Origin: Escherichia coli
GTDB lineage: Bacteria > Pseudomonadota > Gammaproteobacteria > Enterobacterales > Enterobacteriaceae
DNA: 64,000 bases
Assembly: GCF_003790525.1 (NCBI RefSeq)
Contig: NZ_CP033635.1
Reading direction: 5' to 3' (one strand)
Under the pieces are notes generated by a model that was given only the letters and a program-made list of their open reading frames with translations, was not told the origin of the DNA and did not search any database. Position numbers and translations under genes: made by a program. Positions 4,548-51,659 of this stretch are shown piece by piece (the first letter of the stretch is position 1; each line of letters starts with the position of its first letter).

Positions 4548-4595
4548 GCCGGAAGCAGCAAAAAAGCGCATTGCAGAACTGGAGGAGCGCCGGTC

Positions 4596-4811
4596 ATGAG
4601 AAAAATCAGTGGAATGTTGAACCTGGAGAAGGCCAGGATGCAGTTGCGTGTTTTGTTATCAGGACCGGTTCCTGCGATCACTCCGATGTCGCATGCCGTG
4701 GCAATTAAAGTTGTGCCTGATGCTCCGGATGCGAGTGAGCGGAGGGTGGCTGAACTGGAACAGGCCTGCGCTGCCGCGGGCATTCGTATCAAAGGGGAAC
4801 AAGTGAAATGA
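4596..4811 (+). CDS. hypothetical small protein
   Basis: 71-aa ORF in same-strand gene string. Confidence 0.25.
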   Translation: MRKISGMLNLEKARMQLRVLLSGPVPAITPMSHAVAIKVVPDAPDASERRVAELEQACAAAGIRIKGEQVK

Positions 4812-5029
4812 AACTGAAGATGCAGGCAATGGACGGCCCGGTGATTATAGAGAGTAGTGATGTGACACAGTTTTACCCTGACCATGAAAGTGGCGGGGAA
4901 CTCACCGCTGTTGAGTACCTTGCTGACGGGGGAAGAATCACCGCGAGGGTGAGTCACTCTTTTTATCAGGTTGCTGCGGCACTTGCCGGGGCATGGCGTG
5001 CGGATGATGCATCAAAAAGCGGTGGGTGA
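4808..5029 (+). CDS. hypothetical small protein
   Basis: 73-aa ORF overlapping upstream stop. Confidence 0.25.
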   Translation: MKLKMQAMDGPVIIESSDVTQFYPDHESGGELTAVEYLADGGRITARVSHSFYQVAAALAGAWRADDASKSGG

Positions 5030-5289
5030 GGACTGTGCCGGAATGATTGTCTGTTCCGAAGCTGCTGAACCGCGACATAAATTTTTTATGTTGCGGTGAA
5101 GCAGCCGGCAAACGAAGAGCGTCAGCGTATCAACAGTTAAGGAAAATATCTTCTGAAGCCGGACGCGACAGTCAGTCCGGTGGTGCTCGTGTGGTGAAGT
5201 GTTTAGCCTGCATCTTTGACAGGGTTCAGTTATAAGCATTTCGGAAACCGTTCCCCGGCGCAGTCTGCCGGGATTTAAGGAGTTTATTT

Positions 5290-6555: not shown

Positions 6556-7381
6556 TGGTTAAAAATCGTACGGTGTTGGCAGTGCCAACAGTGGTTAAAA
6601 ATTGTGCGGTGTTGGCAGTGCCAACAGTGATTAAAAAATGTACGGTGTTGGCAGTGCCAACAGTGGTTAAAAATTGCGCGGTGTTGGCAGTGCCAACAGC
6701 GGTTAAAAAGTGTACGGCGTTGGCAGTGCCAACAGTGATTGAAAAATGTACGGTGTTGGCAGTGCCAACAGTGATTAAAAAATGTACGGTGTTGGCAGTG
6801 CCAACGGTGATTAAAAAATGTACGGTGTTGGCAGTGCCAACAGTGGTTAAAAATTGCGCGGTGTTGGCAGTGTCAACAGTGGTTAAAAATTGTGCGGTGT
6901 TGGCAGTGCCAACAGTGATTAAAAAATGTACGGTGTTGGCAGTGCCAACAGTGGTTAAAAATTGCGCGGTGTTGGCAGTGCCAACAGCGGTTAAAAAGTG
7001 TACGGCGTTGGCAGTGCCAACAGTGATTGAAAAATGTACGGTGTTGGCAGTGCCAACAGTGATTAAAAAATGTACGGTGTTGGCAGTGCCAACGGTGATT
7101 AAAAAATGTACGGTGTTGGCAGTGCCAACAGTGGTTAAAAATTGCGCGGTGTTGGCAGTGCCAACAGTGGTTAAAAATTGTGCGGTGTTGGCAGTGCCAA
7201 CAGTGATTAAAAAATGTACGGTGTTGGCAGTGCCAACAGCGGTTAAAAAGTGTACGGCGTTGGCAGTAGCAACAGCGATTAAAAAATGTACGGTGTTGCC
7301 AGTGGCAACAGTGGTTAAAAAGTGTCCGGCGTTGCCAGTGGCAACAGTGTTTGAAAATTGTACTGAGTTGGCACTGCCAAC
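6556..7381. repeat. tandem array of ~23 x 36-bp repeats, each with a 17-bp palindrome TGTTGGCA-G-TGCCAACA (iteron/centromere-like)
   Basis: Read directly: 36-bp period (palindromes at 6574-6590, 6610-6626, ...), unit GTTAAAAATTGYRCGG + palindrome; last copies carry symmetric variant TGTTGCCA-G-TGGCAACA. Confidence 0.9.
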
Positions 7382-7486
7382 ATGACGTAATTTCAGTCAT
7401 TCCTTTTTTTATTTTTGATTGTCAGATCTCCGTCTGCAGGCTGACTATTTCAGCCCGATATCCTTTTCTTTTGCCGGAGATATAAC

Positions 7487-8212
7487 ATGTCTGAAGAACA
7501 AATGAAGGAACCCGCATCCCGTCGTGTAGGTGCGCTTACTTCACCAGTGAATATCGAGTTGCACTCCCGTTATGCAATCATGCTGTGGGAAGGGAGACGA
7601 GGCACGAAAAGTAAAAGTGCTGAAGATCGCAGGGCAGCGAAAATAATGAGTATGCCGGAAGCTATTAAGATGACTGGCGGCCTCTACAGAGATTCTCTTG
7701 CTGATAATCCCTATGCGGATGAAACGATGTGGAAAGTTGAAAATGCGATTGTTGAGGCAACCGATAAAATTAATGCTGAAGTTCGTGTACTTGAAGGGAT
7801 CCTCAGAAATATTCCGTCAGTGATCACTGTCCGGGATGCTCTTTCTCGTTCTCCTGTCGATATTGGGGTTTTCAGCCGCTCTCCTCTGGGCTACCGCTGT
7901 GTATGGCTTCTTGTCGGGTATGATCAGCTTGCATTAAAAACGTTTCAGGCAGCACATCTGGGGCTTATTTCACGAAACAGGCGTGATGAGTTGTTGTCTT
8001 CTGGTGCGCATCTTATCCGCAAAATTTACGGTATTCTGCAGGGGTATCGCACTATGGCGGTAACTCGGGATGATATTGAGAATAAAACAGAAAAGGCAGA
8101 GAAAGCTATTGCCCGTTATGGTATGCCTCATGATGATATTCTATCCGGTAAGCTCAGATCTTCATTTTCTCCGCCCCTGAACCGTAAGTCCCGTGATGCA
8201 TCCCGGCAATGA
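7487..8212 (+). CDS. conserved ICE-associated protein
   Basis: 241-aa ORF between repeat array and topB; position conserved in this island class by recollection. Confidence 0.4.
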   Translation: MSEEQMKEPASRRVGALTSPVNIELHSRYAIMLWEGRRGTKSKSAEDRRAAKIMSMPEAIKMTGGLYRDSLADNPYADETMWKVENAIVEATDKINAEVRVLEGILRNIPSVITVRDALSRSPVDIGVFSRSPLGYRCVWLLVGYDQLALKTFQAAHLGLISRNRRDELLSSGAHLIRKIYGILQGYRTMAVTRDDIENKTEKAEKAIARYGMPHDDILSGKLRSSFSPPLNRKSRDASRQ

Positions 8213-10514: not shown

Positions 10515-10815
10515 TTGACTTTATTTATGGCTGTTTTAAAAATGAGCATGCTAAATAGCTGCTTTGCAGCCAACCAATCTCCCGGTGGTCTGAGAGGGAG
10601 GCTTACGCGACCACACTGTCATCTTCGGATGACCAGCCAATGTTCCAGCAGTCTGAGAGGAGCGCCTTCGGGTGACTGCCAGCCAATGTTTCAGCGATCT
10701 GAGAGAAACGCCTTCGGGTGATTGCAATATCCTCGTAGCCTGAAAGGGGATGCCTTTATGGCGGTACATCCGTTTAGCCTCTGGGAACGGATATCACCAC
10801 TGGTGATTGAGGTAC
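10515..10815 (+). ncRNA. candidate structured RNA or ssDNA element with three hairpin modules (copy 1), unclassified
   Basis: -35-like TTGACT at 10515; modules at 10587-10612, 10649-10678, 10695-10724 each with outer stem, UGAGAG-rich internal loop and CGCC-UUCG-GGUG tetraloop stem; extra hairpin GTCATC-TTCG-GATGAC at 10618-10633. Confidence 0.45.
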
Positions 10816-11705: not shown

Positions 11706-11717
11706 TGAGGAGGTGCT

Positions 11718-12275
11718 ATGGCTTCACGCGGCGTAAACAAAGTTATCCTGATAGGACATCTGGGGCAGGATCCGGATATCCGGTATTTCCCCAATGGCGG
11801 TGGCGCTGTGGCGAATCTGTCACTGGCGACCAGCGACACCTGGCGGGATAAACAGAGCGGTGAAATGAAGGAAGTTACTGAATGGCACCGCGTTGTTCTC
11901 TATGGAAAACTGGCTGAAGTTGCCGGCGAGTACCTGCATAAGGGGTCGCAGGTGTATATAGAAGGCCAGCTTAAAACCCGTAAATGGTTTGACCAGCAGA
12001 ATGGTGTGGACCGTTATTCAACTGAGGTTGTTGTGGGCGTGAATGGTGTCATGCAGATGCTGGGTTCATCGCGTCAGCAGGGCGCTTCCGGTAATGGTGC
12101 TTCAGCACTGGCACAAGGGGGCCAGGGACATCCGCCGAAGACGACCGGACAGACTGGTCGTGCCACCCGGACGACGTCAACGGGTAATGGTGCTCCACCA
12201 ATGGACTTTGACGATGATATCCCCTTTATGGGGCTCGGGTATGGCATGGAACGACGAATTATTCATGCCATGTAA
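11718..12275 (+). CDS. ssb: single-stranded DNA-binding protein
   Basis: OB-fold N-terminus [28 protein letters not shown], Gly/Gln-rich linker, acidic tail DFDDDIPF. Confidence 0.92.
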
Positions 12276-12321: not shown

Positions 12322-13290
12322 GTGAGTGAAAAAGTTAACAAAATCACTATGATTCATGACGGGGCGTTCAAGAAGACGCTTGAAGATCCCGCCGCAGTAA
12401 GGGACTTTCTTGAACAGGTCTTGACACACGATCAGATATCCCGCTGTAATCTTGATACAATAGAAGTTGAAAAGAATTCGTTCGTGACGGAAAGTTTGCG
12501 TCAGCATGCCTGTGATGTTTTGATCAGCATGAAGACAAACGACGGCAGGGACGGATACATTTATACCTTAATCGAGCACCAGAGTTCGCCGGATAAATTC
12601 ATCCCGCTGCGTATGATGCGATATATCCTGGCTGTAATGGAGCAACATGTTGAAAAGCATAAGTGTGCACCTGTGGTGATCCCCGTGTTGTTTTATCATG
12701 GTGCAATGCGGCCATATCCGTATCCGCTGAACTGGGTGGATTGTCTGGATGACCCGGAGTACGGACGGGAGATTTATGGCGAGTCAAAGTCATTCAGTCT
12801 GGTGGATGTCAGTACGCTTGATGATGATGAAATTGAGCAGTATCGCCGGATGGCGGCGCTGATGTACACCATGAAGTCCGGAACTCAAGGTGATTTGATT
12901 GAGCTGATTGGTAAATCGATCACACTGACGGATAAGTATGGCAGTAGCATTCACCTGAATACGGTGCTTACTTATCTGATGGAACTTTACCAGATGGATG
13001 TTGCTGAACTTTTTGAAGCAATATCCACACACTATCCCAGCCATAAGGGGGTGATTATGACGATAGCGGAACAACTGGAAGAGAAAGGTCGGGTTGAAGG
13101 TCTGGAGAAAGGCCTTGAGAAAGGCCTTGAGAAAGGCCGTGCTGAAGGCCGTGCTGAAGAGCGTCAAAAAGCGCTTGCAGAAACTTATGCATCTGTCCGT
13201 CGCATGAGCGATATGGGGATGTCAACGGAAGTTATTAAGCAGGCACTTCATCTTTCTGATGAACAGATTCAGGAAGCGCTTAATAATTAA
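12322..13290 (+). CDS. rpn: Rpn-family recombination-promoting nuclease (YhgA-like, PD-(D/E)xK)
   Basis: GTG 12322 four nt after GGAGG; motifs IEHQSSPDKFIPLRMMRY and VIPVLFYHG; C-terminal GLEKG repeats; track ORF 12043..13290 extends upstream in frame. Confidence 0.7.
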   Translation: MSEKVNKITMIHDGAFKKTLEDPAAVRDFLEQVLTHDQISRCNLDTIEVEKNSFVTESLRQHACDVLISMKTNDGRDGYIYTLIEHQSSPDKFIPLRMMRYILAVMEQHVEKHKCAPVVIPVLFYHGAMRPYPYPLNWVDCLDDPEYGREIYGESKSFSLVDVSTLDDDEIEQYRRMAALMYTMKSGTQGDLIELIGKSITLTDKYGSSIHLNTVLTYLMELYQMDVAELFEAISTHYPSHKGVIMTIAEQLEEKGRVEGLEKGLEKGLEKGRAEGRAEERQKALAETYASVRRMSDMGMSTEVIKQALHLSDEQIQEALNN

Positions 13291-13385
13291 CCTCGCATCG
13301 TAATGATGTGGCAGAGCGCGACTGATGCGTCAGAACGTGTGATGCCCTGTGAACACAGCGCCTGCCATTGTGCAGGCGTTTTTTT
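12978..13385. repeat. direct repeat copy A (3' end of rpn plus downstream hairpin region)
   Basis: About 400 bp nearly identical to 13407..13770 apart from number of 15-nt GGCCTTGAGAAAGGC-type units. Confidence 0.8.
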
Positions 13386-13405: not shown

Positions 13406-13672
13406 GTGATGGAACTTTACCAGATGGATTTTGCTGAACTTTCTGAAGCAATATTCACACACTATCCCAGCCACAAGGGGGTGATTATGACGATAGCGGA
13501 ACAACTGGAAGAGAAAGGCCTTGAGAAAGGCCGTGCAGAAGAGCGTCAAAAAGCGCTTGCAGAAACCTATGCATCTGTCCGTCGCATGAGTGATATGGGG
13601 ATGTCAACAGAAGTTATTAAGCAAGCTCTTCAGCTTTCTGATGAACAGATTCAGGAAGCGCTTAATAATTAA
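13406..13672 (+). CDS. stand-alone duplicate of Rpn C-terminal domain (RpnS-like small protein)
   Basis: 88-aa ORF about 90 percent identical to last ~95 aa of rpn, fewer GLEKG units, own GTG/ATG start. Confidence 0.5.
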   Translation: MMELYQMDFAELSEAIFTHYPSHKGVIMTIAEQLEEKGLEKGRAEERQKALAETYASVRRMSDMGMSTEVIKQALQLSDEQIQEALNN

Positions 13673-13770
13673 CCTCACATCGTAATGATGTGGCAGAGCG
13701 CGACTGATGCGTCAGAATGCGTGATGCCCTGTGAACACAGCGCCTGCCATTGTGCAGGCGTTTTTTTTGT
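13407..13770. repeat. direct repeat copy B
   Basis: Second copy of rpn 3' segment including conserved downstream hairpin GCCTGCCATTGTGCAGGCG + T-run. Confidence 0.8.
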
Positions 13771-25014: not shown

Positions 25015-26482
25015 GTCCAATACCCTGGTGAAATTTGTGGTACCTGCTGTGGTACTGGCGGGGCTGGTGATCACGATGAAAAGCTGCAGCACACCGGAGA
25101 GCGGGAGTGAGAGTACAGCACAGAGCGGTGCGCTGGCCGGATTATCGTCAGAAGAGCTGCGTGCGCTGGGCGTGGAAGGGGACACGCCGGAGGATACCCT
25201 GCGGACCCTGGTTGCCCGCCTGAACCAGGTCAGGGATAACCAGAAAACGCTGGAGAGCCAGAATGCGCAGTTGCTGAAGGACAACGAACAGCTGCGTCGC
25301 CGGGGGACGGATGTGTCCGGCCAGGTCAGTGAAGCCGTGGCGGGAATGCAGAAAACCTACGATCAGAAGCAGCGTGAACTGCAGGAGCAGCAGCGCTCCC
25401 TGATGTCGCAGATTGATGTGCTGCGGGGGCAACTGAGTGACCAGCTGACGGGAAGTCACACGAAGCTCAGCGATATTCCTGACGGGCTGGGACTGGATTC
25501 AGGCAGTGGTGCCGGGTCGTTGATCTCGCAGGGGGCGGACGGGCTGATGTGGGTGAGTCCGGCCGATCAGTCACAGGATGATCCGCTGAGCAGCGGCGGA
25601 AAGAGCGGTCCGCGTTTTCCGACCTCCTTCCTTGAAGATAACCCCCTGACCCGGCAGAAAGCAGCCTATGAGCAGCAGGTGAAGGGGTACAGCAATGAGC
25701 AGCAGGCGGCCACCACGCAGGCCGTGTACACCCTGCCGGAGAACTCAACCCTGACGGGCAGCCGTGCCATGACGGCCCTGCTGGGCAGGGTGCCGGTAAA
25801 CGGCACGGTGACCGATCCGTATCCGTTCAAGATCCTCGTGGGGCGCGATAACCTCACGGCAAACGGCATTGAACTGCCGGATGTGGAGGGGGCTGTGGTG
25901 TCAGGGACGGCCAGCGGTGACTGGACGCTTTCCTGTGTGCGCGGACAGGTGAACAGCATCACCTTTGTGTTTGCTGACGGCACGGTACGCACGCTGCCAC
26001 AGGCGGATGTGAACGGTACCACCAACAGCAATCAGCAGGCGAAAAACGGGAATAACGCAGGCGGGATTGGCTGGATTTCGGATGAGGATGGGATCCCGTG
26101 TATCAGCGGCACCCGTAAATCCAATGCGTCAACCTACCTGCCGACGATATTCGGGCTGGCCGCAGCCGGCGCGGCCGGGGATGCCCTGAGTGAGGGGCAG
26201 TACACCTCGCAGAACAATGTCAACGGTATCACCTCGACGCTGACCGGCAGTGCCGGTGAAGCGGCGCTGGGTAAGGCCCTTTCCGGCGGGATGAATGAGA
26301 CCGCGGACTGGGTAAGACAGCGTTACGGGCAGACCTTTGATGCCATTTATGTGCCGCCGGGAAAAACGCTGGCCGTTCACATTACCCGTCAGCTGGCGAT
26401 TGATTATGAAGAGCGTGGACGTCGTGTGCGTTATGACTTCACCCTGCCGGGAGAAGCGGGCGACCGGGGCGGCCTTGACTGA
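25004..26482 (+). CDS. conserved ICE protein (VirB10-like role suspected)
   Basis: N-terminal TM anchor, coiled coil, large periplasmic domain. Confidence 0.45.
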   Translation: MQIKSNTLVKFVVPAVVLAGLVITMKSCSTPESGSESTAQSGALAGLSSEELRALGVEGDTPEDTLRTLVARLNQVRDNQKTLESQNAQLLKDNEQLRRRGTDVSGQVSEAVAGMQKTYDQKQRELQEQQRSLMSQIDVLRGQLSDQLTGSHTKLSDIPDGLGLDSGSGAGSLISQGADGLMWVSPADQSQDDPLSSGGKSGPRFPTSFLEDNPLTRQKAAYEQQVKGYSNEQQAATTQAVYTLPENSTLTGSRAMTALLGRVPVNGTVTDPYPFKILVGRDNLTANGIELPDVEGAVVSGTASGDWTLSCVRGQVNSITFVFADGTVRTLPQADVNGTTNSNQQAKNGNNAGGIGWISDEDGIPCISGTRKSNASTYLPTIFGLAAAGAAGDALSEGQYTSQNNVNGITSTLTGSAGEAALGKALSGGMNETADWVRQRYGQTFDAIYVPPGKTLAVHITRQLAIDYEERGRRVRYDFTLPGEAGDRGGLD

Positions 26483-38795: not shown

Positions 38796-39070
38796 TTGAC
38801 GATAGCTTTTTTCTTTTGTTATTCTGTACCCGCTTTAACTGTCGCTTCGGCGACCAACCAATCTCCCGGTGGTCTGAGAGGGAGGCTTACGCGACCACAC
38901 TGTCATCTCAGGATGACCAGCCAATGTTCCGGCAGTCTGAGAGGAGCGCCTTCGGGTGACTGCAATATCCCATGAGCCTGGAAGAGGATGCCTATATGGC
39001 GGCAACATCCGTTTAGCCTCTGGAAACGGATGTCACCAGTAGCTGGTGACTGAGGTACGTTATTTTTACC
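38796..39070 (+). ncRNA. candidate structured RNA or ssDNA element, two modules (copy 2)
   Basis: -35-like TTGACG 38796; hairpin GTCGC-TTCG-GCGAC; modules matching copy 1 A and B; terminal hairpin GTCACCAG-TAGC-TGGTGAC + T-run near 39031-39068. Confidence 0.45.
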
Positions 39071-39818
39071 TTCGGATTACCCGTACGGTTTTGTATGTCA
39101 TGAAACTTACGAGTTTTCCTCTCGCAGAGTGGCGAAAATGCCTTATATATCTGCGTCTTAAAGATTTTCTGTCTGGCTGCATGAGCTTCTTGTGACTGTG
39201 CGCACGGCATAAGGCCATTTGAAATTTGGCTGCTTGCGTGTGTACGTGGAGTCTGAAGCTGTGCGGCGTCACTTGCGTGCGACCGGAGGGAACACCAAGT
39301 GACGCCACAACAATCTGCCCTGAAAGCAGCATCACGTAAGGCCAGCCAGAAAATCGTCGCTCGTGACCAGCGTTCTGATGACCGTTTCGTCTGTCTGACA
39401 GCGTCTTTCAGTAACGTGTCCATGCCTTTCCGGCGCGTCCGTTTTCACGGACGGCCACGCCGGAATGTCTTTTTAAACTTCATAATACATGAGAGGTAAG
39501 TGTATTAAATAGTTGAAAAAAGGAATAAATATGAAAAATCGTTCTGATGTCGGAAGGCGTCATCGTAAGATGACGGGGAGTAAAAAATCGCCCTGGTGCA
39601 CAGGTAGCGAACTCCTGTAAAAACTCAACATGTGCAAGCTCTGCTACATCGACATCAAACGAGCCAGGAAGGCGAGCAACCGCGTTACAGAGCCGTCCGT
39701 GATGACGAAAAACTAACAATATCAACGATCTGGTCTGTTTATCGGAAGGGCATCTCATGCAGTTGAACTTTCAGAACGGATGGTTTTCTGCATCTTTTTT
39801 AACAGGGGGATTGACGTT

Positions 39819-40736
39819 ATGTCCCGTAAATCGTCACGTTCCAAAGTTGAAGTCTTTCGCAAGTCATTCATCTCACTTGCCCGTGATTGTGGTGGCAGCT
39901 ACGCAACAACCGCTGACAGAATGCGAATTGCCAGATACTTTTTGAATTATTTGCAAGTAAACGGTATCAAACTTCGTCAGACGGGCAGTATTAAGACGAG
40001 GCATATTTCTGGTTATCTTCTCAGCAGGAAAGAGCAGGGGATCTCTCACCGCACAATTCAGAATGAACGGGCAGTTATGCGCGCAATTCTAGAGAAAGAT
40101 GGTCGCCTTAAAATAGCGGATCCGTCCAATCCTTTATTGAGCAATGAAGCTCTTGGACTCAGGGATACATGCCGTGATGGTAAAAAGATACCACTCTCAC
40201 AGGATGAGTTTAATAAAGCCTTCAGTAAGGTTGAAAAAAATAATCCCGGTGTTGCTGCAGTAATGCAAATTTCTTATGTTCTTGGACTGAGGACAAAAGA
40301 AGCTGTTCAGTCTTGTAAATCAGTTAACTCGTGGCTACGTGAACTTGATTCAGGGCATGATTCTCTTCTCGTTGTTTTTGGGACGAAAGGTGGAAGGCCC
40401 AGAGATACAACGATCATTAATCGTGATGCAGTGAAACATGCGCTCATTTATGCAAAAAACATTATGGATAAACAGAATGGTAAACTTATCGATTGCCCCA
40501 ATATTAAACAGGCTATAAACGTATATCGTTACCATGTAAGAAAAGCTGGTTTATCTGGAGTGAAGGCACCACATAGTATGCGTTATCATTTTTCGCAGGA
40601 AGCAAGGCAGTTTTATCGAAAAAGTGGATATGGAGATAAAGAAATTTACGCAAGGGTTTCCATGGACCTTGGTCATGGTGACGGAAGAGGGCGTTATGTA
40701 AAACAGGTCTACTTTAAAGGCGATGATGAGAGCTGA
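39819..40736 (+). CDS. tyrosine recombinase/integrase-like protein
   Basis: ATG 39819 preceded by GGGGGA; SAM-like N-terminal region; candidate catalytic residues GLRTKEA, HSMRYHF, GRGRYVKQVY. Confidence 0.5.
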   Translation: MSRKSSRSKVEVFRKSFISLARDCGGSYATTADRMRIARYFLNYLQVNGIKLRQTGSIKTRHISGYLLSRKEQGISHRTIQNERAVMRAILEKDGRLKIADPSNPLLSNEALGLRDTCRDGKKIPLSQDEFNKAFSKVEKNNPGVAAVMQISYVLGLRTKEAVQSCKSVNSWLRELDSGHDSLLVVFGTKGGRPRDTTIINRDAVKHALIYAKNIMDKQNGKLIDCPNIKQAINVYRYHVRKAGLSGVKAPHSMRYHFSQEARQFYRKSGYGDKEIYARVSMDLGHGDGRGRYVKQVYFKGDDES

Positions 40737-41593: not shown

Positions 41594-41890
41594 TTGAAGT
41601 TTTATGCAGTTTGTGCTTACAATTTAAACGCTAACTTGTCGCTTCGGCGACCACCAATGTTCCATGTGGCCTGTGAGGAACGCCTTCGGGTGGCCCACGT
41701 CGCTCCGGCGACCACCAATGCTTCATCTGACCTGTGAGGAGCGCCTTCGGGTGGTCAGTTTTACACCTCCTGAGCCTGAAAGGAGCTGTGCGTGCTGAAG
41801 GGATATGTTCCCGGAAGTACGGGCAAATCTGCGCACCTTTGAGAGCAGATGTCACTGCGGTTTTCCGTGATGATGAAGGCTTTTTTATCA
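41594..41890 (+). ncRNA. candidate structured RNA or ssDNA element, two modules (copy 3, divergent)
   Basis: TTGAAG (41594) and TACAAT (41618) promoter-like pair; two modules with stems GUGGCC/GGCCCAC and CUGACC/GGUCAG around UGUGAGGA-CGCC-UUCG-GGUG; T-run near 41881. Confidence 0.4.
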
Positions 41891-42009
41891 CTGTATGACC
41901 TGAGTTATCTCTGGTCTTTAAGCGCATCGTGTTATCGCGTTGATGTGTTCACCTGACGGATTTTCCAGTCCGTCAGGGCGGAACGTCCGTCTTTTATCCG
42001 GAGGTTCCG

Positions 42010-42411
42010 ATGTTTATTCCACTTCTGTTTCGCGCAGAGATGCGCCTGACACCTTTCTTTCAGCGACTCAGACAACGTCTGTGTTATCCGGTGAGTCGTG
42101 TTCATACACAACATCCCTGGTCTTCTCCACAGTTGCGGCACCTTTACTGCACGCCGTGGTTTGTTAACGCCACCGGCAATCTGGCAGTCCGTGCCTGCAT
42201 TCTTTCCATTGACGGTTCTTTGCGACACTGCTTTGAGTTCCGTGAAGGCTCTCACAGCCGTGAATACCGTTTCTGGTTTGAGGCGCTTCCTTTGTCGGTA
42301 CTGCGTTTTAACGCTTTTACCGGTCGAATATCCGATCGCCGTACACTCTCTGCTGCCTCCCGTATGGCCGCGCAGCTTACTTCCTTTCGCTATCGCTTCG
42401 GTTTGCGCTGA
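42010..42411 (+). CDS. hypothetical Arg-rich protein
   Basis: ATG preceded by the same 18-nt TTTTATCCGGAGGTTCCG as rpn; antisense ORFs also open here. Confidence 0.35.
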   Translation: MFIPLLFRAEMRLTPFFQRLRQRLCYPVSRVHTQHPWSSPQLRHLYCTPWFVNATGNLAVRACILSIDGSLRHCFEFREGSHSREYRFWFEALPLSVLRFNAFTGRISDRRTLSAASRMAAQLTSFRYRFGLR

Positions 42412-42563
42412 AGCTGTTTGAGGTCGTTATGACCGTCATTTTCTCTACGAGCAGCGTTGTCTGATCGCGCCATTCAGAACGCGATGACAAAGCTGATTTT
42501 TCCTTAACCCGTCCGGGAGCGCTTCCGTTCGGGGAACGGTCTCTCTGTTTCTGGAGATTGTTT

Positions 42564-42950
42564 ATGGGACTCGATATTTTTTTCCTTGGGCGTGATCGTG
42601 TTTGTGTTACCGACGCAGTGGTATCGGTACCGGAAACGCGGGAAGTGGGGTACTTTCGCAAGGTTAACCCACTGATTGCCTGGTTTGAGAAGCATTGTGG
42701 ACCGCTTGAAAATGCCGTGGAGCGTCCGGTTTCCAGAACGGAACTGGAGGCACTACTGAGCGATCTTGAATGCCTTACGCCGGAGAACTGCCGGGAATTC
42801 TTCCCCACAACAGAAGGATTCTTTTTTGGCTCTCAGGAGTATGACCAGTATTACTGGAAGGATGTTGAGGACGTGAAGTCGTGGGTCAGACGCACGCTTG
42901 ATTCGTTTGATTTTGAACGAAAAATACTGTTGCTCTGGGCATGGTGGTAA
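42564..42950 (+). CDS. hypothetical protein
   Basis: ATG 42564 preceded by GGAGA; acidic. Confidence 0.4.
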   Translation: MGLDIFFLGRDRVCVTDAVVSVPETREVGYFRKVNPLIAWFEKHCGPLENAVERPVSRTELEALLSDLECLTPENCREFFPTTEGFFFGSQEYDQYYWKDVEDVKSWVRRTLDSFDFERKILLLWAWW

Positions 42951-43036
42951 CTATTTCTCAGTCCTTGTTTTTAACCATGTGATTATTCGCAGAGGCCCGA
43001 CAGCTCTGGCCTGCTTTTATTCCGGAGAATGAGATT

Positions 43037-43228
43037 ATGCAAATAAGTGCAGAAACTCGCGCTGTTTTACGTCACTACAGACAGATCATTAACGCCAGAC
43101 GGCGTGAAGATGGCATGAAAGCTCTCAGCACGCCGCAAATCGTTGATGAGATCTGTGAGTTTATGCTCAGCCAGCCAGCAGTGTATCTGGGGGGGCAGTT
43201 CATCATGCAGAAGGCCAGAACAAGATAG
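43037..43228 (+). CDS. hypothetical small protein
   Basis: 63-aa ORF with GGAGAA upstream. Confidence 0.3.
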   Translation: MQISAETRAVLRHYRQIINARRREDGMKALSTPQIVDEICEFMLSQPAVYLGGQFIMQKARTR

Positions 43229-43368
43229 CTGTCTTTGTTCATGGCTTTTCAACAGACCGTTATGCTTTCGCCACCACATGGTAAGGCGGGTCTGATTTTA
43301 CTGTTAACCGTACGGTTCACTCTCATACCGTACGGTGGGAGTGAACCCTTTTCATTAAGGACACTCTC

Positions 43369-43878
43369 ATGAAAACGAAAACTTCTGCACCTGCTGTATA
43401 TGTTGGTACCTGGGCTAAATACAACAATGGCAGCATAGAAGGATGCTGGTTTAATGATTTAACCGTTTTTGAAACTGAAAGCGATTTTTTATCTGCGGCC
43501 CGTAAGTTTCATCAGGATGAAAAAGATCCTGAATTTATGTACCAGGATTATGAAAACTTTCCTTCGGGAATGGCTTCAGAATATGGTTTCAACTGGGCTT
43601 ATGTTGAAGGTTATCGTCTTGCCCGTGAAGAAGGCTGTGAAGATGCATGGTATGCATGGGTTTCTAATACCGGTGATACCTGTTTCGAACAGTTCAGGGA
43701 GGCGTGGCTTGGTGGTCCTTATGACAGTGAACTCGAGTTCGCCGCGCAGTACGTGGATGAATGCGGTTTTCTGTCAGAGGTACCTGATACTGTTGCACGC
43801 TATTTTGATTATGAGGCTTTTGCGCGCGATTTGTTCATGGAACTGGATTTTGTCGACGGACACGTTTTCCATCGGTAA
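43369..43878 (+). CDS. ardA: antirestriction protein ArdA (DNA-mimic, anti-Type I R-M)
   Basis: Motifs AVYVGTWAKYNNGSI, DPEFMYQDYE and C-terminal ARYFDYEAFARDLFM match ArdA family; very acidic. Confidence 0.85.
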   Translation: MKTKTSAPAVYVGTWAKYNNGSIEGCWFNDLTVFETESDFLSAARKFHQDEKDPEFMYQDYENFPSGMASEYGFNWAYVEGYRLAREEGCEDAWYAWVSNTGDTCFEQFREAWLGGPYDSELEFAAQYVDECGFLSEVPDTVARYFDYEAFARDLFMELDFVDGHVFHR

Positions 43879-44074
43879 CTCACAGCCATGAGGGCGCATA
43901 TAAGCCGTGTACTGGCGGATGTGATTTCAGCATACATTCTGCTGGTTTTTTTACCGTTGTTGACAATTTTAATCATCGCGGATGAACAACCTGAACTCTG
44001 TTGTTCACCGCCCGGAGGCATCGTTCCTTCGGACGGTGTGCTCTTTCATCAGAAAGAATCAGACAGGGGGTTTT

Positions 44075-44434
44075 ATGTATTCGCGTTTTATTACTGGTTA
44101 CTGGCATCTTCAGACGCAGTCCGCTTTGCTGGCACATCTCTGTCAGCTTGAAGGTGAACTGACGATACTTCGCGCCTGGCAATGTCTCGGAATTACCCCG
44201 GTGCCGGAGGATGAAGATGAGCCTTCACCACTTTACTCAATTTTGTGGGATGTTGGTGAGGCTCTGGGCTGGTTGCTGTATGACCTGGAGATGGAAAATG
44301 TTCCTGCACCGGGAACGATTTTCCACGAGGTATTCGACAGGGTTATATCTCTGGGGTATGAGACTGAGCCCGGTATCTGGGCTGAAAGTATCAGTACCGG
44401 AAAGCGCTACGCTGCAATGCCTGACGAATTTTAA
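44075..44434 (+). CDS. hypothetical acidic protein
   Basis: ATG 44075 preceded by AGGGGG, inside track ORF 43982..44434. Confidence 0.35.
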   Translation: MYSRFITGYWHLQTQSALLAHLCQLEGELTILRAWQCLGITPVPEDEDEPSPLYSILWDVGEALGWLLYDLEMENVPAPGTIFHEVFDRVISLGYETEPGIWAESISTGKRYAAMPDEF

Positions 44435-44447
44435 TGTTTTCCACATT

Positions 44448-44488
44448 CCCACAGGGACTCATCCCTGTGGGACGGGTCCCGGCTTTTT
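44448..44488 (+). terminator. intergenic hairpin plus T-run (terminator-like)
   Basis: CCCACAGGGA-CTCA-TCCCTGTGGG 10-bp stem then GGGAC..GTCCC and TTTTT. Confidence 0.45.
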
Positions 44489-44501
44489 CAGGAGAAATTT
44501 C

Positions 44502-44840
44502 ATGAGACCCGATTTGAATACTTTACCCGGAGATTCCGGCTGCAGCGTCTGGTTCTATGACGGAATGTCTCAACCGCGTCTGCTGGCGGGCAGTATTGCC
44601 GGGTTACTGACGGATGTTACGATCACATCGAATTACCGTGGTGACGTCACATCTGAAATTCATGACGTGGTGCAGGAGTGGCTTGCGACCGGCAGGGGTA
44701 ACCTGGCGGATTTAAAGGAAGAACTCTGGTACTACAACCTCTACATAAATCCGTCGGCAGACGAACTTATGAATGCCAACAGGCGGTATGGCCTCGGACA
44801 TACCACCAGGCTGAAAGGCTTTATCAATAACGCGGCGTGA
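44502..44840 (+). CDS. hypothetical protein
   Basis: ATG 44502 preceded by AGGAGA, inside track ORF 44211..44840. Confidence 0.4.
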   Translation: MRPDLNTLPGDSGCSVWFYDGMSQPRLLAGSIAGLLTDVTITSNYRGDVTSEIHDVVQEWLATGRGNLADLKEELWYYNLYINPSADELMNANRRYGLGHTTRLKGFINNAA

Positions 44841-44915
44841 CACACCGCCATCCCGTGAGGGCTCAGCTCCTCACGGGGCTGTTCCCTCGGTGATTTTCAT
44901 ACAGAGAGGAGCAGA

Positions 44916-45353
44916 ATGATGAACGTTAAGTCTGTGACTGAGGTTGACGACGCTGTGGTTGCCCGTGTCAGTGAAGTTCTGGAATTCGCATTTCCGGGGC
45001 AGAAATTTGAAGTGCTGAAGGTATGCGATTCCGGCGTTTACAACATGATTAATGTGTACTGGCTGGACGGCCCGACACAGGCTGAAGTGCGGTTTATCAC
45101 CCGTGCGTTTGAAGGCAAAAACGGGCTGAGGTTTGTGCACGAATCCCGCGAATTCAGTAATGAATTTGTGCAGGAGTGCATTGACCGGCTTCGCCAGAAG
45201 TACGGGCATCGCAACGTTCCGCCAGAGGTGACCGTGGAGCGTTACTGGAAAAACGATCTGTGGAAGATTAAAACAGATCGTTTCCCGGGCACTATTGAGG
45301 TTGCCATCAACGAAATGGGGATGGAAACCAGTAAATACCGGAAGGTTGTATAA
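44916..45353 (+). CDS. hypothetical protein
   Basis: 145-aa ORF with GAGGAG RBS; preceded by hairpin CCGTGAGG..CCTCACGG. Confidence 0.4.
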   Translation: MMNVKSVTEVDDAVVARVSEVLEFAFPGQKFEVLKVCDSGVYNMINVYWLDGPTQAEVRFITRAFEGKNGLRFVHESREFSNEFVQECIDRLRQKYGHRNVPPEVTVERYWKNDLWKIKTDRFPGTIEVAINEMGMETSKYRKVV

Positions 45354-45460
45354 CCGGCTGGACTTTTGACGATGGCGGAATGTGACAATTCCGCTTTTCC
45401 CGTGAGGGCATTGTTCCTCACGGGACAATGCCCTCTTCATTTACCAGAGGAGCATTGATT

Positions 45461-46438
45461 ATGGCTGAATGGTGCAGAAATCGTTTTGAAATCACCGGTA
45501 AGTCAGTCTGTCTTGACGTACTGATTCAGTGGATTGAAGGGAATGATGCCCCCCGGTACCGTCATGCGATCCAGCAGAGCATACTGCTGTTTCTTGCAGG
45601 CTGTGCGGGGATACTGAAACCGGTAAGAACGGTGTCATATCCGCCTTATCCCGGGCTGGTCAGTCACGGTGCCGGCTCAACAACTGTAGCCAGTCAGGCG
45701 TTTGAACAATGGCTGGGATTACTGACCAGGGATGCCTTCCTTGATCACGAGACGGTGAAGACAATAGATCGTCTTTATCATCAGACAGGGACAGGCGCTA
45801 TCCGGTGGAGTAATCTGCCTGATACGGCGAAGGAGATAATCGGTGGTGTGCTTGCACAACAATATGCTGACTGGTTTGGCGTGGCGGATGTGTATGAACG
45901 CCCTGATAACGCCTGTCTCTGGGAGTCGTTGTTAACATTTGCGGAGTATTCGCAACCCTGTGATATGCTGCAGGTGATGCCAACACGACTGGCCACGGAG
46001 CTGAACGGAAGTGGTGGTTTGCTGAAAGGCACCGGAACGACCCGCAGTTTTTACTGCCGCCAGTTTGGTATGGAGTACCCACTGGGGCAGAATGTCCGGT
46101 GGAAACGAACCGGGCTGAGTACGTTGATACTGGAGTTTGATACCATCTGGTGTCCGCCTTCAGGTGTACTGGTGGGGGAGATTTCGGCAGTGTTTGACTG
46201 TGAGGTCCGTCACTGGTACAGCGAGCCGAAGAACGGAATCAGAGGCTATGACTGTTATGATGGTGGTGAACATACGGACAGCAATATGGAAGCCGAATGG
46301 CCACACTCTGACGATGAGGGGGAGGTCGCGGAGCATGAGCAGCCACAACTCTGTCTGATCAGGGACACGCAGCCAGGTGAACGCGTCATGGCATTAGCAT
46401 CAGTCGAGTCCCCGGGGCCAGTAGTAAAAATAGTGTAA
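45461..46438 (+). CDS. hypothetical protein with acidic C-terminus
   Basis: ATG 45461 preceded by AGAGGAG, inside track ORF 45428..46438. Confidence 0.4.
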   Translation: MAEWCRNRFEITGKSVCLDVLIQWIEGNDAPRYRHAIQQSILLFLAGCAGILKPVRTVSYPPYPGLVSHGAGSTTVASQAFEQWLGLLTRDAFLDHETVKTIDRLYHQTGTGAIRWSNLPDTAKEIIGGVLAQQYADWFGVADVYERPDNACLWESLLTFAEYSQPCDMLQVMPTRLATELNGSGGLLKGTGTTRSFYCRQFGMEYPLGQNVRWKRTGLSTLILEFDTIWCPPSGVLVGEISAVFDCEVRHWYSEPKNGIRGYDCYDGGEHTDSNMEAEWPHSDDEGEVAEHEQPQLCLIRDTQPGERVMALASVESPGPVVKIV

Positions 46439-46519
46439 TGAAACAATGCGCCACATTTTGTGGCGCTTTTTTAATAAATCAGTGATGGCAGAGTTGTTAT
46501 TGTAAATAACTCTCCGTGT

Positions 46520-49435
46520 TTACTGAGTCAGTTTTTTTATCAGGTCGTGAATTTTATCACCTGAAAACTGGGTCATGAAAGTTATCTTTATGGATTTACT
46601 GATTTGTTCGAAGAGTTTCTGTGCATGTTTTATTTTATCGCGTTCTTCATGTCTGAGTTCACGTTTGCCATCAACATTTTTGGTTTCAATAATAAGGTTC
46701 AGATAATCACCCTTTGACGTGTTTACAACATAAGCGAAGTCAGGGGAGTAAGTGTATCCTCCCGCTACAGGAATTTTTATTGAATTTTTGGGGATCTTTG
46801 TGAAGACAATGACTGACCTGACCTCACCCTCTGTCATATTGAGTTTTTCAAGTTCTGAATCATAAAATACTTCTTCAAAAAGATAAGAGTCCAGTGGAGG
46901 GCTTGTATTATCCTGTAAAACGCCAAGATCACTTGACAATACATCAGCAAGATAACCGCCGTCTGCATTGGTGAATTTCGTGGGATGGACAGTTCCTGAT
47001 ATTACATTATACCCAAGGCTGAATTTACTGAACGAGTTATTAAGCAAATACTTGCTGAAACCAGATTTAATTTTTCTGATTGTCTGAATGTTAAGGTATT
47101 CAGTTATATTTATGATGTCTTTTATATCACAAAAAACCTTATGCATGGTGTCATGTTTGACAAAAATAGTCTGTGATAATTTATCAAGGAATTCACGATA
47201 GCTCATTGTGTTTATTTTGTGAAAATTATCCTCATCAACACTGAGAATGCTTTTCGACATTGCCGTATCATTATGGATATAAATTCTTTCAATACGAGTA
47301 TGAGCACCGGATTTGGTAAATCTGTCTGCTTCTTCCAGCATAAACGCTCTGAAAAGGGATAAAAACTCACGTTCACTTTTTATTTTATACTCAATCACGA
47401 CCTTTTGATTGATCAAGTCCCATAGTTCTTTCAGCTCACTGAACTTACCAACACGCATTTTAGTGCGTCTTTTTCCATCAGAGGCTTTTTTTATTTTGCC
47501 TGGTTTCACTCCTGCAGGAAATGCTGCCGGATATCTGGCTTTTAAGCGGCTATAGGCATCTGAATCTTTGAAGTTATCATTATCATCAATGATCTCATCA
47601 TCAAAAATTTCATTCAAGAGTGTTCTGGAGGAAAGCTCCGGATATTGAGACAGGATTTTATCCTTAAGTTCCTGAGTAAACTTACCTGGAACAGTCTCTT
47701 TGAAAGAACTATCGTTGATCTCTTTGACAAGAGAATCGACAAAATCTTTTTCTGTAAAATCAACATAATAGTTGAGGGTAAAATTGCGGTCTTTCACACG
47801 ACACATGTATTCATTCACCGGAAGACGTAAACCACGCCCTACTTCCTGAAGTTTAGATGTGGTGCTACCGCTCGAACGGAGCTTACAAATCTGAAAGACA
47901 TTTGGGTTATCCCATCCCTCACGCAACGTCCATTTAGAGAAAATGAAACGGCGAGGATTTTCTAAAGACAATAGAAGCTCTTTATCATGAAGGATTTCGT
48001 TGATTTCCTGCTCAATTTTATCATCTTTATCACTATTATCTTTTGAAAAATAACCACCATGAACAGAAGATATATCCTTAACAGTTTTTTCAAGGTAGTT
48101 TCTGTAAAACTCATCTTTTTCTGTTTTTAACAGTTCATTTGCTTCTGCCAAAACGTATTCTTCGAACTTAGTTTTCAGGCTTCCTGCAATATCATTACCA
48201 TCACGATAGCCTTCAATGTCATCAATGAAGAAAAGAGTAAGAGGTTTTATGCGTGGCCTTTGTGTCAGATACTCTTTTTCTAACTTAAAGTGTTCTTTGA
48301 CAGCTTTACGTATCATGTTATCAGCAAGTGTCTGATCGTAAGAATAGGGGTTTATCGAACTACCAATTTTTAGCTCAATACCATTACTCAACACTGCTGT
48401 ATTCTTATTTAAAGCATCAAGAGTTAAATCATGGATCGCACTATGCGTCTTAGATAGTGATTCACCTTTGGCTAACTTAAAAATTTTTTTATTATTATTT
48501 TCGTTCAGTTCAAATGTAGCTTCTTTTCCGTCAGATTTGACCAACTTGAGGTTGGCATTACCATCACCAACTATATCCTCAATGTATGCATCAATACCTT
48601 TAACAAGATCTTCATTGAAGGCATCTACGGCTGTAAGACGATAAACTAAGTTCTTATAGCCTTCACTAAAGGTTGCACCATAGCGGATGATATATTGGGC
48701 ATTAAATTTTTGAATATGTTCCCATGTCTTTTTACCAGTAGGAAATTTATGAGGCTCATCAATGATAATGAATGGTTTTATCGCACTAAGTGCAGAAAAT
48801 GGGGTATCAAACTGATTATTAAGCAAGCCAACATCATAAGTGTCAGTTAAAGACTTAGAGTTAATCATCCCTGAATTGATCACAAGAATGTGTATATATT
48901 TCTTATTGAAATTACTTGCTTCAACAAAATCATGGATAGCTTGAGGCATATACGATTTTGTATTTTTACCCGAACGTTTCTGACTTTCAACAACGTAAGT
49001 CTTTAGTTCACGCTCGTAATCATCTCGAAAGTGTTCTTTTATAGCATCGCTTTTTAAAAAGTTAACGGTTCCGGCTTTGATCGATAGGGTAGGAACAATG
49101 ATGATAAACTTGTTAATACCAAATGATTTGTTCAGGTCAAAAATTGTTTTGGTGTAAGTATAAGTTTTACCTGTACCTGTCTCCATAGAAACATCAATTA
49201 CGTTGCTTTTAGCATCGTAATTATCTTTTGAGTGCTCAATACCATTGAACTCCTGAACATTTTTTATGTTGTTGTAGTATTGTTGTTCAGATAGATTCAG
49301 TTCTGGATTAGCTAACAGGCGAATTGCAACATGATCCGTCTGATGAGGTATGGCGGATACAAAGACATTCATTACCGAATCAACGCCAGCCTTTTGATGA
49401 GGTAAATTTTTTTCGAATGTGAACCCTTTAGACAT
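46520..49435 (-). CDS. res: Type III restriction endonuclease subunit Res
   Basis: SF2 helicase motifs METGTGKTYT and IIIDEPHKF; C-terminal PD..(E)xK-like YSPDFAYVV...IIETK; directly downstream of mod; AT-rich. Confidence 0.85.
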   Translation of the reverse strand: MSKGFTFEKNLPHQKAGVDSVMNVFVSAIPHQTDHVAIRLLANPELNLSEQQYYNNIKNVQEFNGIEHSKDNYDAKSNVIDVSMETGTGKTYTYTKTIFDLNKSFGINKFIIIVPTLSIKAGTVNFLKSDAIKEHFRDDYERELKTYVVESQKRSGKNTKSYMPQAIHDFVEASNFNKKYIHILVINSGMINSKSLTDTYDVGLLNNQFDTPFSALSAIKPFIIIDEPHKFPTGKKTWEHIQKFNAQYIIRYGATFSEGYKNLVYRLTAVDAFNEDLVKGIDAYIEDIVGDGNANLKLVKSDGKEATFELNENNNKKIFKLAKGESLSKTHSAIHDLTLDALNKNTAVLSNGIELKIGSSINPYSYDQTLADNMIRKAVKEHFKLEKEYLTQRPRIKPLTLFFIDDIEGYRDGNDIAGSLKTKFEEYVLAEANELLKTEKDEFYRNYLEKTVKDISSVHGGYFSKDNSDKDDKIEQEINEILHDKELLLSLENPRRFIFSKWTLREGWDNPNVFQICKLRSSGSTTSKLQEVGRGLRLPVNEYMCRVKDRNFTLNYYVDFTEKDFVDSLVKEINDSSFKETVPGKFTQELKDKILSQYPELSSRTLLNEIFDDEIIDDNDNFKDSDAYSRLKARYPAAFPAGVKPGKIKKASDGKRRTKMRVGKFSELKELWDLINQKVVIEYKIKSEREFLSLFRAFMLEEADRFTKSGAHTRIERIYIHNDTAMSKSILSVDEDNFHKINTMSYREFLDKLSQTIFVKHDTMHKVFCDIKDIINITEYLNIQTIRKIKSGFSKYLLNNSFSKFSLGYNVISGTVHPTKFTNADGGYLADVLSSDLGVLQDNTSPPLDSYLFEEVFYDSELEKLNMTEGEVRSVIVFTKIPKNSIKIPVAGGYTYSPDFAYVVNTSKGDYLNLIIETKNVDGKRELRHEERDKIKHAQKLFEQISKSIKITFMTQFSGDKIHDLIKKLTQ

Positions 49436-51531: not shown

Positions 51532-51659
51532 GTTGCGTTGCGTTGCGTTGCGTTGCGTTGCGTTGCGTTGCGTTGCGTTGCGTTGCGTTGCGTTGCGTTG
51601 CGTTGCGTTGCGTTGCGTTGCGTTGCGTTGCGTTGCGTTGCGTTGCGTTGCGTTGCGTT
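51532..51659. repeat. pentanucleotide simple-sequence repeat (GCGTT)n, ~25 copies, 58-185 nt upstream of mod start
   Basis: Read directly: uninterrupted gttgc/gcgtt tract from about 51532 to 51659. Confidence 0.95.

Follow-up and report, generated by a model that had tools for sequence, protein, structure and literature searches.

A block of eight same-strand genes, one of them ardA, lies at positions 41,992-46,438 of a 64,000-nucleotide stretch of Escherichia coli DNA (assembly GCF_003790525.1, contig NZ_CP033635.1; the whole stretch is called the window below). We consider it likely that the block is one accessory operon of an integrative and conjugative element (ICE), serving anti-restriction and establishment and lying in a conserved slot of variable content between a STAXI RNA and a DUF1281 gene. 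The genes, in order, are o1, o2, o3, ardA, o5, o6, an LPD29-domain gene and the DUF1281 gene. The anatomy of the block, its homologies and conservation, the covariation of its RNA structures and the purifying selection on its genes were observed directly, and from these we infer a single transcript, the timing of its expression and an anti-restriction activity.

The related loci that define the slot were fetched with an alignment of DUF1281 proteins. A scan of species genomes with a single DUF1281 protein had returned nothing, and the alignment-based rescan gave 73 loci, all species representatives, from many genera of Enterobacterales. STAXI units were located in them with a covariance model (R1) built from one 43-nt unit, and 304 open reading frames (ORFs) from the blocks were clustered and their representatives scanned against Pfam. 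In 62 of the 73 loci a same-strand STAXI is found 1.3-4.7 kb ahead of DUF1281. Of the remaining 11, nine offer too short an upstream stretch for a decision, L065, with 4.3 kb upstream, has an o1-like ORF close to the contig start, and L012 has 9 kb upstream of DUF1281 without STAXI. A second STAXI is usually found upstream of an Integrase_1 gene, and the recurring layout is STAXI-(EFASI)-integrase-STAXI-variable small genes-DUF1281. In the window, STAXI copy 2, EFASI and the Integrase_1-family gene together mark the slot's conserved left boundary. ArdC (ArdcN with a zincin peptidase) immediately precedes DUF1281 in 27 loci, ArdB/KlcA-type 'Antirestrict' proteins are present in 36, and one or the other is carried by 61 of the 63 blocks.

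An exchange of the same kind is seen within E. coli. The sister element of strain 2015C-3121 has the same backbone, with two extra genes and ArdC in place of o3 and ArdA; the swapped segment corresponds to window 42977-43968, and homology to the ArdC variant resumes at 43969. The hairpin leader and the first four codons are common to ardA and ardC (ardC as seen in L080). Since nearly all blocks carry ArdC or ArdB/KlcA and since ArdA and ArdC are swapped in E. coli, the slot between STAXI and DUF1281 is a predicted anti-restriction position, with ArdA as its occupant here. ArdA, o3, o6 and LPD29 were found in none of the 73 species representatives. A sequence-only reading of the window had proposed an anti-defence island at this place; the slot bears out an anti-restriction module, and the part of the proposal that gave anti-defence roles to o1, o2, o5 and o6 found no support. 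As a separate observation on the slot, blocks of Xenorhabdus (for example L025 6728-9001, L029 and L055) contain one or two ArdB/KlcA-type genes, a gene for a 180-aa unknown protein and a CbtA-toxin-like gene, an order that recalls the antirestriction/toxin-antitoxin modules of E. coli CP4-type islands, and in many Xenorhabdus genomes several copies are present.

The identity of ardA, already recognised from the sequence, was confirmed by a match to Pfam PF07275 (93.7 bits, cut-off 27; E 2.3e-26; residues 10-162 on profile positions 1-147 of 155), to PHROG 2059 'anti-restriction protein' (3.3e-26) and, over the full length, to the solved ArdA 2W82, together with 7BTO and 7BTR (E 1.8e-8; query 9-163 on chain 5-155). 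Proteins of the ArdA family are acidic, mimic B-form DNA and sequester Type I restriction-modification enzymes. The window's ArdA has an isoelectric point (pI) of 4.21 and, by composition, 33 aspartate and glutamate against 12 lysine and arginine residues, and DNA mimicry and Type I inhibition would be expected of it from its family. Its gene has a GC content of 0.44 (0.37 at third codon positions), against ~0.50-0.53 in the flanks, and looks like a recently imported cassette; the nearest plasmid ArdA proteins, including that of an IncI-gamma/K1 plasmid, are ~62% identical. It resembles the ArdA proteins of Tn916 (Orf18, PDB 2W82) and of the IncI plasmid ColIb-P9 in its full-length Pfam domain, its strong acidity and its conjugative carrier, and differs in that the window ardA sits in a probable STAXI-led operon of an SPI-7-type ICE, where it is interchangeable with ArdC.

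All eight ORFs begin on the + strand at the positions in Table 1, and the same eight coding sequences were called by the PGAP annotation pipeline in near-identical E. coli chromosomes. The strong ribosome-binding sites described earlier are present, with a Shine-Dalgarno (SD)-like sequence, from GGAGG to GAGAGGAG, lying 5-12 nt upstream of every one of them. The genes had also been described as small, mostly acidic and, apart from ardA, unrecognisable. The second of these is fair, as five of the eight proteins have a pI of 4.2-4.9 (o2 4.67, ArdA 4.21, o5 4.19, o6 4.94 and DUF1281 4.90), while the LPD29 protein is near neutral (6.16) and o1 and o3 are strongly basic (11.4 and 10.0). Small suits them in general and fails for the DUF1281 protein, with its 325 aa, and unrecognisable fails for the LPD29-domain protein and for DUF1281, which also has the DUF1281_C domain, and stands for the rest. 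Relative to a sister block of 87-92% identity, the ratio of nonsynonymous to synonymous substitution rates (dN/dS) is 0.16-0.43 for o1, o5, o6, LPD29 and DUF1281; these five are therefore under purifying selection and are real genes.

No sequence match was found in Pfam, NCBIfam, PADLOC or the PDB for o1, o2, o5 or o6, and none of the eight proteins matched a PADLOC defence-system model at E <= 0.01. The earlier suggestion that o1, o2, o5 and o6 act as anti-CRISPR or anti-SOS factors or as DNA mimics thus found nothing in the Pfam, NCBIfam and PDB searches to back it, and two AlphaFold models gave generic resemblances only. The o1 family is basic (pI 10-12) and conserved in 23 of 63 blocks with a dN/dS of 0.25, for which reasons we rejected the suspicion, raised by its basic composition rich in R, F, L and S, that o1 is a spurious ORF. 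Its AlphaFold model is a folded alpha+beta domain, and a word-indexed homologue search with o1 returned near-identical E. coli proteins only. Homologues of o2 that are ~40% identical were found on 326 plasmids, mostly of ~110 kb and non-mobilizable; o2 is present in seven of the related loci, and its relatives are of phage or phage-plasmid type. The o5 protein represents its own ~120-aa acidic subfamily and gave a confident four-helix-bundle model (pLDDT 86) with generic fold matches only; its membership of DUF3085 was considered and rejected as a single-linkage clustering artefact caused by one chimeric ORF. On plasmids, no homologue of o5 was found, and for o6 there was none on an enterobacterial plasmid, the single match being a Pontibacillus replicon.

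The conserved last gene of the operon encodes a close homologue of Api92 from the YAPI island of Yersinia pseudotuberculosis (PDB 2IJR). To what is known of Api92 the present data add its fixed place at the end of an antirestriction operon and a conserved terminator-like leader; a literature search on DUF1281 found no functional literature. A natural fusion of the ArdC N-terminal single-stranded DNA (ssDNA)-binding domain with DUF1281 and DUF1281_C was also seen, in a 406-aa protein (P0101) of Citrobacter sp. RHBSTW-00229. It matches the order ArdC then DUF1281 of the 27 loci and suggests that the two work jointly.

Based on annotated relatives, the window is part of an ICE of ~81 kb of the SPI-7/YAPI/PAPI-1 family, chromosomal in E. 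coli and placed between the kps capsule locus and tRNA-Phe. In these relatives it bears genes for ParA, an SPI-7-type DnaB, ParB, the STY4528 and STY4534 replication proteins, topoisomerase III and ssb, as well as a GI-type type IV secretion system (T4SS; TIGR037xx), a type IVB pil operon that includes a shufflon, UvrD, a TraI-domain protein (MOBH) and an integrase. The TIGR037xx genes, the pil operon, the MOBH TraI-domain protein, the integrase and tRNA-Phe in the relatives thus support an ICE context, and the type IVB pil operon, GI-type T4SS and tRNA-Phe integration are the same as in the YAPI/SPI-7-family ICEs. Of 5426 complete E. coli genomes, 36 have the ardA block, with identities of 95-99.9% and a chromosomal location in every case. 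Within an otherwise 99.9% identical element, CM2 (L001), there are two insertions, 3060-5147 and 25040-26248, namely an iha siderophore-receptor/adhesin gene in the T4SS region and IS1414 between DUF1281 and res; they indicate continuing cargo turnover around the block.

A functional Type III restriction-modification system had been placed immediately downstream on the opposite strand. Intact res (971 aa) and mod (678 aa) ORFs do lie directly downstream of the block, on the - strand and convergent with it, as a putative Type III system. Window 51532-51656 is taken up by a pentanucleotide tract that reads (GCAAC)x25 on the - strand; it falls within a short ORF upstream of mod, at 58-182 nt from the mod start codon, and has 33 units in the near-identical CM2 element. 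Being hypermutable, it may render the Type III system phase-variable.

The hairpin module which the sequence-only reading had counted as a third copy ahead of the block is real, and it is the Rfam family STAXI (RF01728), scoring 83 bits against a threshold of 40.5; over the block, Rfam at a relaxed threshold gave nothing besides STAXI. This copy consists of two hairpin-plus-pseudoknot units with cUUCGg loops (R1 matches at 41654-41698 and 41715-41758) and a third element, and makes up the 5' part of the operon leader. STAXI has been described near Ssb, topoisomerase, antirestriction and integrase genes, and its authors left undecided whether it acts as RNA or as single-stranded DNA (Weinberg et al. 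2010; PMC2864571); STAXI RNA has since been detected by reverse transcription quantitative PCR (RT-qPCR; PMC12370729). The window and the related loci hold 112 STAXI unit matches, with multiple pair types at all six positions of the P1 stem. This 6-bp stem shows covariation across 88 distinct units, which contain 26 G.T/T.G pairs and 3 A.C/C.A pairs, and the structure therefore belongs to the mRNA-sense strand. The cUUCGg loops are nearly invariant among the units, and because of these conserved loops and the RT-qPCR detection an RNA leader is favoured.

A sigma-70-like consensus match ends shortly before STAXI copy 3, and promoter-like sites, again as consensus matches, precede the other copies at 10515-10543 and 38796-38825. 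Compared with published STAXI, the window copy is bona fide and its neighbours, ArdA and Integrase_1, fit the published association, as does the location of EFASI past STAXI copy 2 and ahead of an integrase; added here are the placement of STAXI immediately behind promoter-like sites, where it makes up the 5' leader for three units, the conserved STAXI-to-DUF1281 operon in Enterobacterales, the sense-strand pair counts and a STAXI-EFASI module on small plasmids. This 0.9-kb module (window 38836-39725) was found at 2197-3129 of L004 (NZ_CP059920.1, the rolling-circle plasmid p3) and at 2195-3080 of L006 (NZ_CP100506.1). One carrier is a 3.1-kb plasmid from an ICE-bearing strain, whose only sizeable gene encodes a Rep_1 rolling-circle protein and where the module is 94.5% identical and on the strand opposite rep; another, of 5.3 kb, lacks a recognisable Rep ORF and has the module at 99.7% identity. 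Possible roles of the module are those of a single-strand origin, of a site for mobilisation or of an RNA module acting in trans. The pC194-type nick site CTTGATA is absent from the rolling-circle plasmid, and the displaced strand is not assignable there. STAXI fragments also occur on an IncK2/Z plasmid among insertion sequence elements, where they are uninformative.

The three perfect hairpins noted earlier between genes, at 44448-44471, 44852-44877 and 45399-45424, are present, but to regard them as mere punctuation falls short, because the one before DUF1281 is a conserved, covarying, terminator-like leader at the RNA level. Two instances of the pattern CCGTGAGG..CCTCACGG are present in the window, the expectation from 100 shuffles being 0.00, and this hairpin is kept right upstream of DUF1281 in 15 loci of other genera. 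In an alignment of 68 distinct upstream regions the order is the preceding stop codon, hairpin 0, hairpin A, an overlapping hairpin B, the SD sequence AGAGGAG and the ATG start codon. RNAalifold gave hairpin B as the consensus structure of the 68 sequences; this hairpin is 95.5% paired, compared with 54-69% in slid controls, and has 63 double-change cells, compared with 20.8 ± 5.9 in shuffles (reached in 0/500). It is followed by a U-run (TTTTTT in the DNA) in most genera and by TTCATTT or GGTGATTTT in the window, where its 3' arm can pair with the SD region. Leaders of like architecture precede ardA, o6 and o2, and the leader at the 5' end of the block folds with a minimum free energy of -149.5 kcal/mol (z -3.84 relative to shuffles). 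The 5.3 kb of the block contain 20 terminator-like sites, with 5.5 ± 2.4 expected; two other 20-kb stretches of the ICE have 31 against 17.6 and 26 against 17.3 expected.

Table 1. Positions in the window of the eight genes, the RNA elements and the predicted control sites in and around the ardA block.
Feature	Position	Strand	Description
o1	42010..42411	+	Small basic protein, pI 11.4; conserved family ending ...RYRF
o2	42564..42950	+	Acidic, 128 aa; PHROG 7971, E 1.3e-24
o3	43037..43228	+	63 aa, basic; part of the o3+ardA cassette
ardA	43369..43878	+	169 aa, pI 4.2, net charge -21
o5	44075..44434	+	Acidic, pI 4.2, 119 aa; predicted four-helix bundle
o6	44502..44840	+	112 aa; PHROG 10958 (7e-11) and PHROG 32750 (2e-8), both of unknown function; dN/dS 0.43
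LPD29-domain protein	44916..45353	+	145 aa; PF18847, E 1.3e-7; dN/dS 0.23
DUF1281/Api92-like	45461..46438	+	325 aa; PF06924 (4e-66) and PF18406; PDB 2IJR, 2e-106; dN/dS 0.16
STAXI copy 1	10617-10770	+	Rfam; before STY4534-ssb
STAXI copy 2	38901-39060	+	Rfam; before EFASI and the Integrase_1 gene
EFASI RNA (RF02957)	39539-39661		~480 nt downstream of STAXI copy 2, upstream of the integrase
Upstream context	38901..40736	+	STAXI copy 2 (38901-39060), EFASI (39539-39661), Integrase_1-family recombinase (39780-40736)
Sigma-70-like promoter	41594..41623	+	TTGAAG-18-TACAAT, consensus match; ends 14 nt before STAXI; predicted start ~41630
STAXI copy 3	41637..41808	+	RF01728, 83.3 bits, E 5e-16, model positions 1-153 of 153; before the ardA block
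Structured 5' leader	41630..42009	+	~370-383 nt; STAXI and hairpins including 41952-41975
Terminator-like hairpin	41976-41988	+	Just before the o1 SD
ardA leader	43308..43347	+	ACCGTACGGT repeated (hairpin A), overlapping a 13-bp hairpin B, then CTTTTC and SD
Post-ardA terminator-like hairpin	43927..43945	+	T7 run; right end of the swapped cassette
o6 leader	44448..44481	+	Perfect 10-bp hairpin 44448-44471 overlapping short hairpin 44468-44481, then GCTTTTTC and SD
LPD29 leader	44852..44889	+	Second copy of the DUF1281 type: hairpin A CCCGTGAGG/CCTCACGGG, hairpin B arms GAGGGCTCAGC/GCTGTTCCCTC
DUF1281 leader	45399..45435	+	Hairpin A 45399-45424 overlapping terminator-like hairpin B 45404-45435, then SD AGAGGAG
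Predicted bidirectional intrinsic terminator	46448..46466	.	8-bp stem, 6 GC pairs, TTTTTT tail on the + strand; common to the convergent res

Taken as one operon, the block would serve to protect and establish the ICE DNA in a new host. The sigma-70-type promoter would start a transcript of ~4.85 kb comprising the structured STAXI leader, the eight genes and the terminator downstream of DUF1281, and ArdA would sequester Type I restriction-modification enzymes by its mimicry of B-form DNA. The slot is bounded on the left by STAXI, after the Integrase_1 recombinase, and on the right by DUF1281/Api92, with ArdC or ArdB/KlcA as its occupants in relatives. Most genes are preceded by two overlapping hairpins, the second terminator-like and just upstream of the ribosome-binding site; these probably adjust read-through, the stability of the mRNA or its translation for each gene separately, and they also offer short homologies for cassette exchange.

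Several observations weigh against this picture. Six of the eight proteins are without an assigned function, so that an anti-defence role is indicated, by homology, for one gene only. The promoter agrees with the consensus at 9/12 positions, and shuffled sequences contain such sites no less often. The count of KlcA-type proteins comes from BLAST to one Pfam-verified representative. In the E. coli leader of DUF1281 the U-run has degenerated, which makes a terminator function doubtful there, and the cross-genus alignment did not validate hairpin A, seen clade by clade (67.6% paired, no higher than the shuffles). The density of sense terminator-like sites in 61 related blocks, 1.18 per kb, is only slightly higher than the 0.90 per kb of the T4SS region, and a multi-terminator operon as a trait of the whole family is thereby weakened.

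The same structures can be read in other ways. One is that the block is a true leading-region anti-defence island, which would enter the recipient first and be transcribed from the incoming single strand, with STAXI as an Frpo-like ssDNA promoter; we regard this as unlikely. The gene content does resemble that of leading regions, as ArdA and homologues of o3 and LPD29 occur in those of IncI and IncN plasmids, and STAXI precedes units bearing ssb, integrase and antirestriction genes, as Frpo does in plasmids (PMC11541004). The STAXI-led units are all on one strand, in an orientation that fits transfer starting to the right of the block, near uvrD-traI, and the STAXI-EFASI module takes, on a rolling-circle plasmid, the place expected of a single-strand origin. 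However, the pair counts place the STAXI structure on the mRNA-sense strand and not on the template strand used by Frpo, and its cUUCGg loops stabilise RNA, not DNA (PMC2864571). The STAXI hairpins contain no -35 or -10 elements, an ordinary duplex-type promoter lying upstream instead; the promoter region, taken as template strand, has a fold no stronger than that of shuffles (z -1.1), and the relaxase gene is ~27 kb from the block. An Frpo-like role for STAXI was thus rejected as the best model, given the sense-strand structure, the cUUCGg loops and the lack of an unusual template fold. A different reading keeps the RNA and makes it the controlling agent: STAXI and the overlapping-hairpin leaders of the single genes would exert cis-acting control by antitermination or attenuation, like the put and nut sites of phages, and gate a burst of ICE establishment genes, perhaps with o1 as RNA-binding factor. 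We give this a low probability. In its fuller form, which we hold to be improbable to the same degree, tandem STAXI pseudoknots at the starts of three operons (ssb, integrase and anti-restriction) would act together with leaders of the form a-b-a'-b' followed by U-run and SD. By analogy, such a circuit might let RNA polymerase or ribosomes traverse an operon studded with terminators, as an alternative to the ssDNA Frpo promoters of plasmids, and there is little likelihood of this either. The position of STAXI at the extreme 5' end of three transcription units speaks for it, as do the excess of sense terminator-like hairpins in the block (20 against 5.5 expected, with 12 sense and 3 antisense sites) and the presence of such a hairpin no more than 100 nt upstream of seven of the eight genes. 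The DUF1281 leader, with its covarying terminator-like stem and, in most genera, a U-run, is also in line with it, and o1 is basic, conserved and here the first gene after STAXI. Termination or antitermination at the block's hairpins is, however, predicted from sequence only, the terminator density of related blocks is near that of the T4SS region, and o1 is confined to 23 of 63 blocks, does not come first in all of them and is modelled as a folded alpha+beta domain, not as an N-like disordered arginine-rich peptide. STAXI-EFASI is found, moreover, on small plasmids with no operon downstream.

Finally, the hairpins could be taken for recombination sites of an integron-like cassette array served by the adjacent Integrase_1 recombinase, a reading that we consider very improbable. 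A tyrosine-recombinase-like gene is indeed found just upstream of the block, small co-oriented genes have inverted repeats between them, gene content is highly variable between fixed flanks, and replacement takes place at the level of cassettes, o3 with ArdA against two extra genes with ArdC. But the recombinase belongs to PF12835/PF12834 in Pfam and not to the IntI group, and the hairpins covary on the sense strand in the G.U manner of RNA, go together with SD sequences and U-runs and, on reading their sequences, lack attC-like core sites; the combination of an IntI-type integrase with attC sites between cassettes was not found in the block. The ArdA/ArdC breakpoints lie in the shared leader and first codons, which fits homologous recombination better. 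One accessory operon in the slot between STAXI and DUF1281 remains the explanation that we prefer.

The block has links to plasmid leading regions through its gene content, which is of the leading-region type, with ArdA and the o3 and LPD29 families from IncI and IncN leading regions. Full-length homologues of o3, 63-65% identical, are carried by at least 5000 plasmids, mostly conjugative. In the leading region of an IncI-gamma/K1 plasmid the o3 homologue lies two genes upstream of ssb, with one hypothetical gene between, in the order methylase, DUF1380, antirestriction, DUF1380, o3 homologue, hypothetical, ssb, DUF905, ParB, psiB, psiA, hok and ArdA. Mobilisation and relaxase genes follow a few kb past ArdA, and the leading-region genes are on one strand, toward the relaxase. 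The block is transcribed toward uvrD-traI, which is compatible with the pattern of this plasmid and proves nothing. LPD29 homologues were found on 205 plasmids, 168 of them conjugative; on the IncN plasmid pKpnC22 the homologue is beside an antirestriction gene, between repA and stbABC.

Leading-region anti-defence islands fall among roughly the first 30 ORFs to the leading side of oriT, the transfer origin (Samuel et al. 2024; PMC11541004). In a relative of the ICE, Br_112, the TraI-domain relaxase gene is ~27 kb to the right of the block; the oriTs of MOBH elements may be tens of kb from traI, that of SXT being 40 kb away (PMC5812530), and a literature search for the oriT of SPI-7/PAPI-1/ICEclc-type elements gave no usable coordinates. 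Compared with the plasmid islands (Samuel et al. 2024), the block shares co-oriented small genes, a known anti-restriction gene accompanied by uncharacterised families, and a content that is likewise mosaic and swappable, with ArdA, the o3 family and LPD29 in common with IncI and IncN plasmids. It differs in being carried by a chromosomal SPI-7/YAPI ICE with a distant relaxase gene, and in its upstream region, where no Frpo/ssi-type ssDNA promoter was found and STAXI, folding on the sense strand next to a duplex-type promoter-like site, resembles an RNA leader. In addition, psiB, an orphan methyltransferase and an anti-CRISPR were not recognised in the block, and the ssb of the ICE belongs to a separate STAXI-led unit.

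Anti-defence islands have been charted mainly on plasmids beside a known oriT, and the present locus would extend the same logic to a chromosomal ICE family whose members, relatives of SPI-7, YAPI and PAPI-1, spread virulence and fitness genes in Enterobacterales. Operons of this kind are already known; what is added is the definition of the slot, the conserved DUF1281 leader and a tractable setting for STAXI. The compact locus offers a test bed for STAXI RNA and for that leader, and o1, o2, o5, o6, LPD29 and DUF1281 make a short list of candidates for new counter-defence or establishment functions. If control by RNA were true, these ICEs would time their entry genes otherwise than plasmids.

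Other features of the window lie apart from the block. At 6448-7503, right after the gene for the STY4528-family island replication protein, ~22 tandem 36-bp units each hold a TTGGCA-16-AAAAAT promoter-like match, in a stretch that is unannotated in a relative; the array looks like iterons and is a candidate vegetative origin of the ICE. A direct duplication of ~400 bp (12977-13385 and 13407-13767, 85-95% identical) is found downstream of the ssb/rpn region, and both copies finish on an identical strong terminator, AGCGCCTGC..GCAGGCGTT and then a T-run. The ICE also has a gene annotated as type B (zinc-independent) ribosomal protein L31, placed between its T4SS and the STAXI-integrase region, at 48752-49015 in Br_112 (L002) and at 11711-11974 in CM2 (L001).

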